Assembly: GCA_039630055.1 (NCBI GenBank)
Contig: JBCNVN010000003.1
Location: 56,068 to 92,128 of the forward strand
Reading direction: 5' to 3'
Length of the DNA stretch: 36,061 nucleotides
Origin: Candidatus Caldarchaeales archaeon
Lineage (GTDB): Archaea > Thermoproteota > Nitrososphaeria_A > Caldarchaeales > Wolframiiraptoraceae
Position numbers and translations under genes: made by a program. Positions 12,064-28,972 of the stretch are shown piece by piece. The stretch's first letter is position 1. Every line of letters begins with the position of its first letter. The notes beneath the pieces were generated by a model that was not told the origin of the DNA, did no database searches, and saw only the letters and a list, made by a program, of their open reading frames with translations.

Positions 12064-12839
12064 TGAGACTTATACCTTTGTTCTTGAAAGTATTCGTCAT
12101 CCTGGTATTCTTATTCCTATACTCTCCAATCGTTGTCATGGTGCTATACTCATTCAACGAGGCAAGATCATTAGGGGTCTTTACGAACTTCTCTTTAAAA
12201 TGGTATGAGAGGGTCTTAGCGAACCCGAGCGTATGGAGCGGACTTTACAACTCTTTCTGGGTTGCAGCTGTAGTAACTATAGTTTCAACGATCCTAGGGT
12301 TGATGATCGCTACGGCTGTTACGAGGTATAATTTTAAGGGTAGAAGCTTTCTAGAAGGTCTTATACTCATACCTATAATTATACCAGAGATAGCTGAAGC
12401 CCTCTCCCTCATGATAATGTATATTTTTCTTAATATCCCGATGGGGCCGATAACGGTTATAATAGGGCATATAGCATTCGATATATCCTATGTGACAGTG
12501 GTGATGAGGGCTAGGATGGTGGGATACAATAGGGCTGTAGAAGAAGCTGCTAGAACTTTGGGAGCGAACGAGCTTCAGACCTTTATCAAGATAACTCTAC
12601 CGATGCTCTACCCTGCCATACTTGCATCAGCTCTACTAGCTTTCACGCTAAGCTTCGATGACTTGATCAAGACACTATTCACTACTGGGCCAGGATTTAG
12701 AACTCTACCCTTAATAGTCTGGACATCTGCGGCCAGGGGAGGGGTCTCACCAGAGCTAAACTCTTTATCCACTTTCGCTCTATCTATATCGTTCTTATTT
12801 GCGATCTTTAGATTGAGGGCAGAGAAGGGGATGAGGTGA
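12063..12839 (+). CDS. potC: Polyamine ABC transporter permease
   Basis: FLYSPI, YSFN, EEAARTLGA, AFTLSFDD, TLPL; overlaps its neighbours (translational coupling). Confidence 0.9.
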   Translation: MRLIPLFLKVFVILVFLFLYSPIVVMVLYSFNEARSLGVFTNFSLKWYERVLANPSVWSGLYNSFWVAAVVTIVSTILGLMIATAVTRYNFKGRSFLEGLILIPIIIPEIAEALSLMIMYIFLNIPMGPITVIIGHIAFDISYVTVVMRARMVGYNRAVEEAARTLGANELQTFIKITLPMLYPAILASALLAFTLSFDDLIKTLFTTGPGFRTLPLIVWTSAARGGVSPELNSLSTFALSISFLFAIFRLRAEKGMR

Positions 12840-27386: not shown

Positions 27387-28145
27387 ATGAAGATCATTTC
27401 CGTGTCTATCGATAAGTTCGAGTCAGACATATTACGAATCTTTGAGAAAGCTGTATCTATATATGGTTCCAATATACGTGGTAAGCTGTCTAGATTAAGT
27501 GATAAACTTATAAACCTTCATAGAGCGAATAGAGTAAAGATAAACCATTCGGTTATGGAGATGATCTTAGGAGCCTATCTTATAGATAGAGGTTATGAAG
27601 TAGATGTAGAAGCAGATGTTGGAGATAATCTAGTAGCGGATGTAACAGCATATAATGGCGAGGAAAAAATGATAGTAGAGATAGAGACGGGTTTTACTTC
27701 TCCAGAGAATGCTCTTGACCCTCAGAGCTACTTGACAGCGAGAATCATAAGTAAGCTGGCGAGATATAGCAAGTATGCAGACTTATTCTCTTTTGCAACA
27801 CCTCTACATAACGTACTACAGATACCTAGATTCTACTTAAAAACAATCAGAGAGAGAAGTCTAAAAGAAGCACTCATCCTAAGAGATCTCTGTAGTAGAT
27901 ACTATTCCCAGCCGCCCATAACTATTGAGGATTTAAGAAATTCGAGAATAGACTCGATATACCTATTGAATATAGATACGCTAGAAGTAAGGAGGCTGAC
28001 ACCTAAAAAATACGTGGAAACATTGATAGAGAGATTTACTCCTAAAACATTAGAATTGAAAAAATACTTGAAATGGAGCCAACATTCGGAGCAGGCGGGA
28101 ACAAGTTGTACACAACCCTACAACTCCCAGGCTGTGTACCCTTAG
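27387..28145 (+). CDS. Hypothetical protein with a putative PD-(D/E)XK nuclease-like fold
   Basis: H..ME...GYEVDVE...ADV...IVEIETG pattern resembles the restriction-endonuclease-like core (E-x-E in place of E-x-K). The last ~23 codons run into the structured element. Confidence 0.55.
   Translation: MKIISVSIDKFESDILRIFEKAVSIYGSNIRGKLSRLSDKLINLHRANRVKINHSVMEMILGAYLIDRGYEVDVEADVGDNLVADVTAYNGEEKMIVEIETGFTSPENALDPQSYLTARIISKLARYSKYADLFSFATPLHNVLQIPRFYLKTIRERSLKEALILRDLCSRYYSQPPITIEDLRNSRIDSIYLLNIDTLEVRRLTPKKYVETLIERFTPKTLELKKYLKWSQHSEQAGTSCTQPYNSQAVYP
28058..28073 (-). terminator. Putative oligo-T terminator for the candidate ncRNA
   Basis: Minus strand reads TTTCAAGTATTTTTTC directly after the closing stem. 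Confidence 0.3.
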
Positions 28146-28285
28146 TTCCCATCATCAATCCATCCAGGTTAACCGTTCTTCACGGCGTTGTATGGATGGA
28201 TTGATGGTATGTTGCAGGTACACATATTGAGGCTTCCCCCAACATGTTTCCCTACAACATGCCTGAGCCTTTTCCTGTCGGCTCC
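28075..28285 (-). ncRNA. Candidate structured non-coding RNA, family unassigned
   Basis: Nested helices: 28075-84/28276-85 (10 bp; G-U on the minus strand but A-C on the plus), 28092-96/28261-65, 28104-10/28119-25, 28133-40/28217-24, perfect 14 bp 28153-66/28193-206, 28173-76/28182-85, 28243-48/28256-61. Visibly more GC-rich than the flanks. Confidence 0.65.
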
Positions 28286-28307
28286 AATCAGATTCTATTT
28301 TATAGTC

Positions 28308-28322
28308 AAAAATAAGGTTTTC
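28308..28322 (-). promoter_or_regulatory. Putative BRE/TATA promoter for the candidate ncRNA
   Basis: Minus strand reads GAAAAC-CTTATTTT, with the TATA-like part ~24-31 nt upstream of the first paired G (28285), the usual archaeal spacing. Confidence 0.4.
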
Positions 28323-28496
28323 TATTTTTTGGGTTACCGGTAATACCTAGATATATTTCTGGATATTTTAATATCTAAAAGCCCTCAATATTATGATCGC
28401 TTAACAGGTTCTCCAATATCTCTATCAGATGGACTTCTCAATATTCATTATAATAAAACTTATCTATTATCCCATATAGATAGTTTATGAGATATT

Positions 28497-28730
28497 ATGG
28501 CGATATATGCATACATTCTACTCCGGTGTAGTATGGGGAAGTTGAAGAACGTAATCGAGGAAGCCAAGAGACTAGAGAAATTGAAGGCTGTCTATCCTGT
28601 TACTGGTAGATTCGATGCCATAATTGAGGTAGAAGTAGAAGATTTGAAACGGTTAGAAGATCTGGTAATCGACCATATCCAGAAGATCGATGGAGTAGAG
28701 AGGACGGAGACGCTTCTCTCTGTGGGGTGA
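28497..28730 (+). CDS. Stand-alone Lrp/AsnC ligand-binding (RAM) domain protein
   Basis: 77 aa; AYILL, VTGRFD, IDGVERTET; no HTH. Confidence 0.85.
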   Translation: MAIYAYILLRCSMGKLKNVIEEAKRLEKLKAVYPVTGRFDAIIEVEVEDLKRLEDLVIDHIQKIDGVERTETLLSVG

Positions 28731-28738
28731 GGGTGAAG

Positions 28739-28972
28739 ATGCCTATCCATGCTTATGTATTCATTAGAGTCGTGAAGGGTAATGCAAATGCTGTTTTGAA
28801 GGGAGTATCTAGAATCTCAGGGGTAAGGTCTGCTAGAATCGTAACTGGAAGATATGATATAGTGGCATTCGTGGAAGCTGATTCTCTCGAGGGTCTCGGT
28901 AGATTAGTCGCTACAAAGATCCATAGAGTTAGAGGTGTACAATCTACTGAGACAGCGGTAGTTACCATCTAA
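28739..28972 (+). CDS. Second stand-alone Lrp/AsnC ligand-binding (RAM) domain protein
   Basis: AYVFI, VTGRYD, VRGVQSTET; ATG 28739 preceded by GGTGA (the ORF track starts at GTG 28727). Confidence 0.85.
   Translation: MPIHAYVFIRVVKGNANAVLKGVSRISGVRSARIVTGRYDIVAFVEADSLEGLGRLVATKIHRVRGVQSTETAVVTI

Follow-up and report, generated by a model that had tools for sequence, protein, structure and literature searches.

A probable new family of structured RNA encoded convergently with a nuclease-like protein gene in Caldarchaeales

Comparative genomics has brought to light several orphan classes of structured non-coding RNA (ncRNA), for example HgcC, OLE and raiA. RatA/txpA and SR4/bsrG of Bacillus subtilis are type I toxin–antitoxin pairs in which the antitoxin is a convergent antisense RNA, and the omega-RNAs of TnpB and IscB and the bridge RNA of IS110 are RNAs encoded beside their own nuclease or recombinase. 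Beyond the universal RNAs, few structured ncRNA classes are known from Archaea and almost none from the uncultivated hot-spring Caldarchaeales ('Aigarchaeota'). Here we describe a 211-nt structured RNA gene found in a stretch of 36,061 nucleotides from a Candidatus Caldarchaeales genome (assembly GCA_039630055.1, contig JBCNVN010000003.1, positions 56,068 to 92,128; hereafter the window). The gene lies on the minus strand at window positions 28075–28285 and is convergent with ORF252 (27387–28145, plus strand), which encodes an uncharacterized conserved protein of 252 aa and whose last 71 nt overlap the RNA gene. We consider it highly likely that the RNA represents a new family of stand-alone structured ncRNA. 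In its way of working it appears most akin to the other orphan structured ncRNAs, and we tentatively propose a functional partnership with ORF252.

The RNA gene, measured from one strand of its closing stem P1 to the other, coincides with an island of elevated GC content (0.43–0.46, compared with 0.29–0.37 in either flank). Its predicted minimum free energy (MFE; minus strand, 28075–28287) is −117 kcal/mol, whereas dinucleotide shuffles average −63.8 (sd 4.5) and none of 200 equalled the native value (z = −11.9). The plus strand of the locus also folds strongly (MFE −91.9, z = −8.95). R1, a covariance model built from nine sequences, matches the window's own copy over its full length with 204.6 bits on the minus strand versus 43.9 bits on the plus strand, and conserved G-U pairs are numerous when a 30-sequence alignment is read in the minus-strand sense. 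The energy difference between the strands, the R1 scores and the conserved G-U pairs together settle the minus strand as the one that encodes the RNA.

The fold starts with a 10-bp stem, P1, formed by GGAGCCGACA (28276–28285) and UGUUGGCUCC (28075–28084). It is present in the MFE fold and in the nine-sequence consensus, and seven of its nine pairs (helix 1) show compensatory changes in the 30-sequence alignment. A 6 × 3 internal loop follows, with the purine-rich GGAAAA (28270–28275) on its 5′ side and GAA (28085–28087, within CUCCGAA) on its 3′ side. P2 (helix 2; GGCUCAGGC, 28261–28269, with GCCUGCUCC, 28088–28096) is likewise found in MFE fold and consensus, has compensatory changes in six of eight pairs, and leads into a four-way junction with three arms. 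Arm A (28209–28260; helices 3–6 of the covariation count) consists of two stems around a 3 × 3 GAA/GUA loop and ends in the almost invariant apex GGGGGAAGCCUC (28229–28240), which includes GGGGGAAGCC. The central arm B (28153–28206) has a 14-bp stem, a pseudoknot strand, a small apical CCGN..NCGG hairpin (28172–28186; CCGU..ACGG in the window) and a pyrimidine/A-rich return strand; all 15 pairs counted for its helix 7 are compensatory. Arm C (28097–28150; helices 9–11) is a stem with internal loops whose apical loop supplies the pseudoknot partner. The pseudoknot itself is a 6-bp helix between bases of arm B just 5′ of the apical hairpin (UACAAC, 28187–28192) and the apical loop of arm C (GUUGUA, 28119–28124). 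Many homologues have a GAA/GUA-type 3 × 3 internal loop in arm A and another in arm C, resembling loop E on visual inspection.

Upstream of P1 lies a B recognition element (BRE)-like AGAAAA followed by a TATA-like CCTTATTTTT (28308–28323, minus strand; about −38 to −23 from P1), and the same spacing is seen in the homologues. A survey of 37 homologue rows, one of which reads N so that 36 are usable, found a GAAA..TTAT/TATA block between about −37 and −23: by eye every one of the 36 has it, and a crude rule applied by script scores 30 of them. Downstream, a run of six U begins 11 nt past P1 (28059–28064, minus strand) and is likely an archaeal oligo-T terminator; within 25 nt, runs of at least four T occur in 29 of 37 homologues and of at least five T in 20. 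Judged by this recurrence, the BRE/TATA-type promoter and the oligo-U terminator appear real and conserved, and we infer that the gene is transcribed.

These results bear out most of an initial annotation of the locus, which had recognized, by eye, a GC-enriched island encoding a minus-strand RNA with its own promoter and terminator. The closing stem, the CAGGC/GCCUG stem, the perfect 14-bp stem and the CCGU..ACGG hairpin that it had drawn all recur in the MFE and consensus structures. The 8-bp stem with a large bubble that it had assigned to the central arm is absent from the fold, and the bubble above the 14-bp stem turned out to be the pseudoknot strand.

The structure is strongly supported by its evolution. 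For nine sequences, RNAalifold predicts 71 pairs, of which 36 show compensatory changes. In the 30-sequence alignment 93.8% of 2023 cells are standard pairs, compared with 36–40% when the partners are slid by one to three columns; 59 of 72 pairs have changed on both sides, and the covariation score is 0.61 versus 0.07–0.11 in the slid controls, with none of 500 shuffles attaining the observed values. The fitting of this alignment to R1 biases it in favour of the structure, although the difference from the controls is large. For the pseudoknot, alignment A3 (MAFFT) has 92.6% of cells paired versus 30–51% in slid controls, and five of the six pairs are compensatory. Eight sequence versions of the pseudoknot occur across genera, each changing as a unit: CACAAC:GUUGUG, UACAAC:GUUGUA, CACGAC:GUCGUG, ACGGGC:GCCCGU, GUGAGC:GCUCAC, AUGAAC:GUUCAU, ACGAGCG:CGCUCGU and, in genus g4, approximately CUCCG:CGGAG. 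In a scripted control, strands from the same RNA pair over a mean of 7.3 contiguous bp and strands from different RNAs over 5.9 bp, a margin that is modest because related sequences have the motif in common.

Outside the covarying helices, conservation is concentrated in a few elements that are invariant or nearly so: the loop between P1 and P2 (GGRANA, present in all aligned homologues, and GAA), the arm A apex (GGGGG-RN-GCCYC) and the CCGC/GCGG stem of the arm B hairpin. The tetraloop of that hairpin varies freely among stable types (GAAA, GUAA, GCAA, UUCG and others). Readings of the conserved loops as a K-turn, a sarcin–ricin/loop E motif, a GNAR tetraloop, a T-loop or a Shine–Dalgarno/anti-Shine–Dalgarno element were considered by eye and are inconsistent across the alignment.

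BLASTN found the RNA in six of seven other genomes of the same genus (67–81% identity) and gave weaker matches in a second genus; the weakest match of all (E 0.004; G030, family f4) was confirmed neither by R1 nor by R2, a second model built from family f2 sequences. Of the 76 genomes of the order, 31 have an R1 match, in each case a single one of full length. In f1, the window's family, 29 of 34 genomes are positive (g1 6/7, g5 3/3, g4 7/7, g2 13/14, g3 0/3). In the second family R1 gave a single weak match, in G055, which has the conserved motifs. A shorter RNA of ∼ 181 nt was uncovered beside ORF252 orthologues in genus g6 of the second family, and R2, run on 41 genomes, detects this version only in g6, in seven of its eight genomes. 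The total is thus 38 of 76 genomes (31 by R1 and 7 by R2), plus G053, where the RNA was found beside the ORF252 gene; the class spans ∼ 180–220 nt. With R1 and R2, none of the 18 genomes of family f4, none of the 4 of family f3 and none of genus g9 yielded the RNA, and R1 at E ≤ 1 found nothing in five of these genomes (two of g9, two of f3, one of f4), which may reflect absence or divergence. A class-level pattern scan added one candidate, G059, that R1 did not confirm. We also ran a strict three-motif pattern on one genome per species for 185,579 species. Of 27 stretches retrieved, R1 confirmed 19, all archaeal, with record names of Ca. Geocrenenecus, Ca. Terraquivivens, Ca. Wolframiiraptor, 'Aigarchaeota', 'Thaumarchaeota archaeon' and Nitrososphaeria; seven bacterial stretches and one from Calditenuaceae were left unconfirmed, about what chance would give. 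As far as R1 and R2 detect it, the RNA therefore has a narrow range, two families of one order, and it is dispensable, being not found in G003 (a genome of the window's own genus), genus g3 and family f4.

No known RNA family accounts for the locus. Against Rfam 15 no family reached its gathering score anywhere in the window, and even at E ≤ 10 the interval 27900–28500 gave only three chance-level matches (SBWMV1_UPD-PKe, MIR5291 and bxd_1, 12–17 bits); on nine homologue loci Rfam found 16S rRNA nearby and nothing else. The genome's genuine archaeal RNase P RNA (RF00373; G000:C56:33356-33652, 174.3 bits), signal recognition particle (SRP) RNA (RF01857; G000:C3:60-373, 150.8 bits) and 5S rRNA (RF00001; G000:C19:17483-17603, 87.3 bits) lie elsewhere, on other contigs, and none of these models matches the RNA, RNase P not even at E ≤ 10. 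ARAGORN calls no tRNA at the locus, multi-intron and permuted forms not having been searched separately; the sole tRNA it calls in the window is a tRNA-Glu (anticodon UUC) at 12226–12310 on the plus strand. A box C/D sRNA, which would have C (RUGAUGA) and D (CUGA) boxes that form a K-turn, is unsupported, as judged by eye, with UGAUGA at the joint of arms B and C in only three of nine aligned sequences and no Rfam match. A molybdenum cofactor (Moco)/tungsten riboswitch was rejected because Rfam gives no match and the gene stands alone with its own terminator. The initial annotation had already set aside tRNA, SRP RNA, RNase P RNA and C/D guides in favour of a stand-alone archaeal ncRNA outside known families, a reading that our results support; the Rfam searches leave the novelty intact. 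Its remark that the long arm is 6S-like did not hold, since the consensus structure has three arms around a four-way junction and a pseudoknot instead of a rod opened by a bubble, the 'bubble' strand takes part in the pseudoknot, and no Rfam 6S model matches.

That annotation had also named a miniature inverted-repeat transposable element (MITE) or a DNA-level cruciform as an alternative. P1 might pass for a terminal inverted repeat, and the strong fold on both strands would suit a cruciform. However, the element is single copy in the 1.54-Mb, 80-contig genome, every one of the 31 R1-positive genomes has exactly one, and the three-motif pattern has no match in viral contigs. A MITE fails because the element occurs once per genome, and the strand-specific G-U pairs and model scores also argue against a structure formed at the DNA level. 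Together with the lack of a tRNA call or Rfam match and the RNase P, SRP and 5S genes found elsewhere, the evidence already contradicts the whole group of explanations that invoke a MITE, a cruciform or a diverged member of a known RNA family (RNase P, SRP, tRNA or 6S), and we give it almost no credence. We found no description of the RNA in the literature on Aigarchaeota, on Wolframiiraptor and on archaeal structured RNAs, the supplements of which might list ncRNA annotations. The terms non-coding, ncRNA, small RNA, metatranscriptom- and riboswitch do not occur in the text of PMC9246946.

A compact multi-helix junction with a pseudoknot, and conserved unpaired nucleotides clustered in a few loops, are features of ribozymes and riboswitch aptamers, and the RNA might be a new ribozyme or a ligand-sensing RNA that acts alone. 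There is, however, no match to an Rfam ribozyme or riboswitch, nothing points to a cleavage site, and the RNA has its own terminator with no nearby downstream gene on the same strand. We therefore regard an autonomous catalytic or sensory role as very improbable.

The initial annotation had suggested looking beside orthologues of the gene at 27387–28145, and this proved to be the key lead: ORF252 is a near-constant neighbour of the RNA. It is adjacent and convergent in 37 of the 38 RNA loci examined (29/30 in f1, 6/6 in g6, plus G055 and G053). The arrangement is convergent at each of the 36 loci measured: at 25 the genes overlap, with the ORF252 stop codon 1–291 nt inside the RNA gene, and at 11 a gap of 6–62 nt separates them. 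The outer flanks of the pair differ among all six genus-level groups. They are an HtrA-like protease on one side and two RAM-domain genes with an MFS transporter on the other in g1, an SBF symporter and a YHS/P-type ATPase in g4, a UPF0020 methyltransferase and either a CDP-alcohol phosphatidyltransferase or 16S rRNA in g2, a UPF0020 methyltransferase and 16S rRNA in g5, PCNA or ribosomal protein S2 and a molybdopterin-binding enzyme in g6, and a B12-binding protein and an M50 peptidase in G055.

Among the genomes of the order tested for both genes, 27 have both and 19 neither; five, from genus g9 and family f3, have ORF252 without the RNA, and one has the RNA alone. In G003 (C23:79480-79874; L148) the flanking protease, RAM-domain and MFS transporter genes keep their places, but the gap between the HtrA and AsnC genes is ∼ 393 nt instead of 1288, and both the RNA and ORF252 are missing without remnant. 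This is a clean joint absence and not an assembly hole.

Several further features of the surroundings were noted. Four genomes of two genera (L031:1-1112, L024:1-1077, L021:1-186 and L023:330-1202) have a 16S rRNA gene that starts ∼ 300–420 nt upstream of the RNA gene and is encoded on the other strand, so that the promoters are divergent, and several other RNA loci lie near contig ends, as expected beside rRNA operons. A UPF0020 gene (RMKL-like, RNA-methylase-type) directly precedes ORF252 in g2 and g5 (L025:1-744, L026:2450-3211 and L023:2471-3214). In the window, positions 28497–28972 (plus strand) hold a tandem pair of genes, 77 and 81 aa long and overlapping by 4 nt, each for a stand-alone Lrp/AsnC ligand-binding (RAM) domain; they are ∼ 35% identical to each other and conserved within the genus.

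ORF252 has no sequence or profile match in Pfam, NCBIfam or the PDB. Its relatives comprise 684 database proteins, all annotated as 'hypothetical' and typically of 219–235 aa, from Aigarchaeota, Nitrososphaerota including Nitrosopumilaceae, and Bathyarchaeia. The family is thus ∼ 220 aa long, with ∼ 40% identity from Caldarchaeales to Nitrosopumilaceae and Bathyarchaeia, and a sample of 301 genomes of the phylum yielded matches in 128. An alignment of 45 sequences (A7) has 25 invariant residues, among them K51-x-N-H-S, E75, D85, E98-x-E100-T-G, R119, S122-K123 and R126-Y127. E75, D85, E98, E100 and K123 were assigned to a putative active site by eye only. The AlphaFold (AF2) model of ORF252 has a pLDDT of 86.6, falling below 50 in the tail 231–252; in the window this disordered C-terminal tail is the antisense reading of the RNA gene. 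Foldseek matches the model to 3dnx (4.2e-4), the CdiA-CT domain 4g6v_A (8.5e-4) and XisH 2inb (1.8e-3), and further to restriction enzymes, Hjc, NucS and Bax1. VIA-align gives Z values of 7.7 for 3dnx (106 residues), 7.6 for XisH 2okf (113 residues), 6.7 for AF1548 and 5.6 for NucS, all within the tool's 'middling' range. On the model, these matches to restriction-endonuclease-like proteins are weak but consistent, and ORF252 is a probable member of the PD-(D/E)xK superfamily. In three Nitrosopumilaceae-like loci (L105, L106 and L108) the ORF252 homologue is separated by a spacer of ∼ 155–190 nt from the convergent gene that follows it, which in L105 and L108 belongs to the PAC2 family; the spacer folds weakly and is unlike the RNA.

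The overlap of the two genes raises the question of a cis-encoded antisense regulator, the 3′ part of which would pair with the 3′ end of the ORF252 mRNA and so limit a potentially harmful nuclease. The invariably convergent arrangement of the measured loci, the 25 stop codons inside the RNA gene, the loss of the two genes together, and a size and arrangement like those of RatA/txpA and SR4/bsrG would all fit. Yet 11 of the 36 measured loci have no overlap between the coding regions. An antisense RNA would also have no need of a covarying pseudoknot, a four-way junction or invariant loops that lie outside the overlapping part, and ORF252 is a conserved, soluble protein of 220–250 aa with a vertical-looking spread, unlike type I toxins. 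On balance we find it improbable that antisense control is the function of the RNA. Two established types of toxin–antitoxin RNA were rejected as class assignments. A type I antisense RNA has the overlap in 25 of 36 pairs in its favour, but the partner is a conserved protein of 220–250 aa with a nuclease-like fold and not a small hydrophobic toxin. A type III ToxI-like RNA, built of tandem repeats and co-transcribed ahead of its endoribonuclease toxin, does not suit a single unit convergent to its protein gene, a description made without a repeat-finding tool. PADLOC reported only a weak match (RT_I-A, E 0.0027). A TnpB/IscB omega-RNA guide was rejected as well: the RNA is on the opposite strand, single copy and without an Rfam match, and the protein has a PD-(D/E)xK-like fold.

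We tentatively propose that the RNA binds protein and makes up, together with the convergent ORF252, a module of two genes, such that it would bind and control the protein or serve as its substrate or cofactor. The invariant GGAAAA/GAA loop, the GGGGGRNGCC apex and the CCGC/GCGG hairpin would offer contact surfaces for a protein, and the protein most likely to recognize these loops would be ORF252. The RNA may regulate or inhibit ORF252, for instance as a mimic of a branched substrate, or may be bound or processed by it, and antisense pairing between the overlapping loci may add a second layer of control. In a stronger form of this proposal the RNA would be an obligate partner that switches, targets or inhibits a PD-(D/E)xK-fold nuclease, and in one version its four-way junction would mimic a branched nucleic-acid substrate. 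We consider the obligate form unlikely.

A number of observations weigh against any functional partnership. ORF252 is far commoner than the RNA, as the counts of genomes and database proteins given above make plain. At seven thaumarchaeal ORF252 loci the downstream antisense sequence (171–321 nt) folds with −35 to −56 kcal/mol, and none of these folds is like the RNA. Downstream of ORF252, genus g9, family f3 and G310 have a different gene or an AT-rich spacer, and R1 and R2 detect no RNA in the g9 and f3 genomes. Elsewhere the neighbours of ORF252 are varied (PAC2, endonuclease dU, DNA ligase, HypD and a weak, sub-threshold MGMT-like match). The two genes are convergent and not co-transcribed. 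Their joint absence is weak evidence because the genes touch, so that one deletion takes both, and overlapping ends can hold two genes together without a shared function. Finally, the most divergent RNA copy, in the 76% complete G070 (L043:1501-1717; 58.7 bits, z = −4.2), has the same architecture and retains fold and pseudoknot, with the arm A apex and junction motifs altered; its neighbour is not a relative of ORF252, and none was found in the assembly. Because of the wide spread of ORF252, its RNA-less loci and the touching genes, we hold the partnership to be possible, somewhat short of an even chance.

Some of the same observations would suit a trans-acting RNA, a ribonucleoprotein scaffold or regulator unrelated to ORF252 and active, for example, in ribosome or RNA metabolism, whose adjacency to ORF252 was inherited and locked by the 3′ overlap. 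Its invariant loops lie in the 5′ half, outside the ORF252 overlap, the RNA persists without ORF252 in G070, and ORF252 is widespread without the RNA; the divergent 16S rRNA gene in four genomes of two genera and the RNA-methylase-type UPF0020 gene before ORF252 in g2 and g5 could hint at such a role. However, the pair is kept in 37 of 38 loci though both outer flanks change between genera, and the 16S adjacency is confined to four genomes. Moreover, the RNA is dispensable, which argues against a core housekeeping role. We judge a function unrelated to ORF252 to be somewhat unlikely, and continue to favour, tentatively, an RNA that acts together with its neighbour.

The present work provides a well-supported new RNA class with a covariance model ready for annotation, and a concrete RNA–protein pair in which the partner belongs to a nuclease-like family with no assigned function that extends across Nitrososphaeria and Bathyarchaeia. 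The general importance of the RNA is limited because it is narrow in range and dispensable. If true, the partnership would give a first functional handle on the ORF252 family, and an obligate partner would amount to a new kind of archaeal RNA–nuclease ribonucleoprotein module.

Compared with described systems, the RNA shares with archaeal RNase P RNA a multi-helix junction, a long-range pseudoknot, a closing pairing of 5′ and 3′ ends and one copy per genome, but it was not found in many relatives, and the RNase P gene of this genome is elsewhere. Like the omega-RNAs of TnpB and IscB and the IS110 bridge RNA, it falls in the range of 150–250-nt structured RNAs that overlap the end of a nuclease-like gene. 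It differs in being encoded on the opposite strand, single copy and not mobile, in having a PD-(D/E)xK-like rather than a RuvC partner, and in showing no evident variable, guide-like single strand; the corresponding Rfam families are unmatched. With RatA/txpA and SR4/bsrG it has in common that a convergent RNA of ∼ 200 nt overlaps the 3′ end of its neighbour with its own 3′ part and is lost together with it. Here, however, the partner is a PD-(D/E)xK-like protein of ∼ 220–250 aa and not a small membrane peptide, the RNA has a covarying tertiary fold with invariant loops outside the overlap, and 11 of 36 pairs do not overlap. The likeness to orphan ncRNAs of the HgcC, OLE and raiA type goes furthest: a stand-alone gene with promoter and terminator, a complex covarying fold and a narrow range. 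Within that company the RNA described here, which matches no Rfam family, is set apart as an archaeal RNA of ∼ 180–220 nt that combines a four-way junction with a pseudoknot and is tied to one protein gene.

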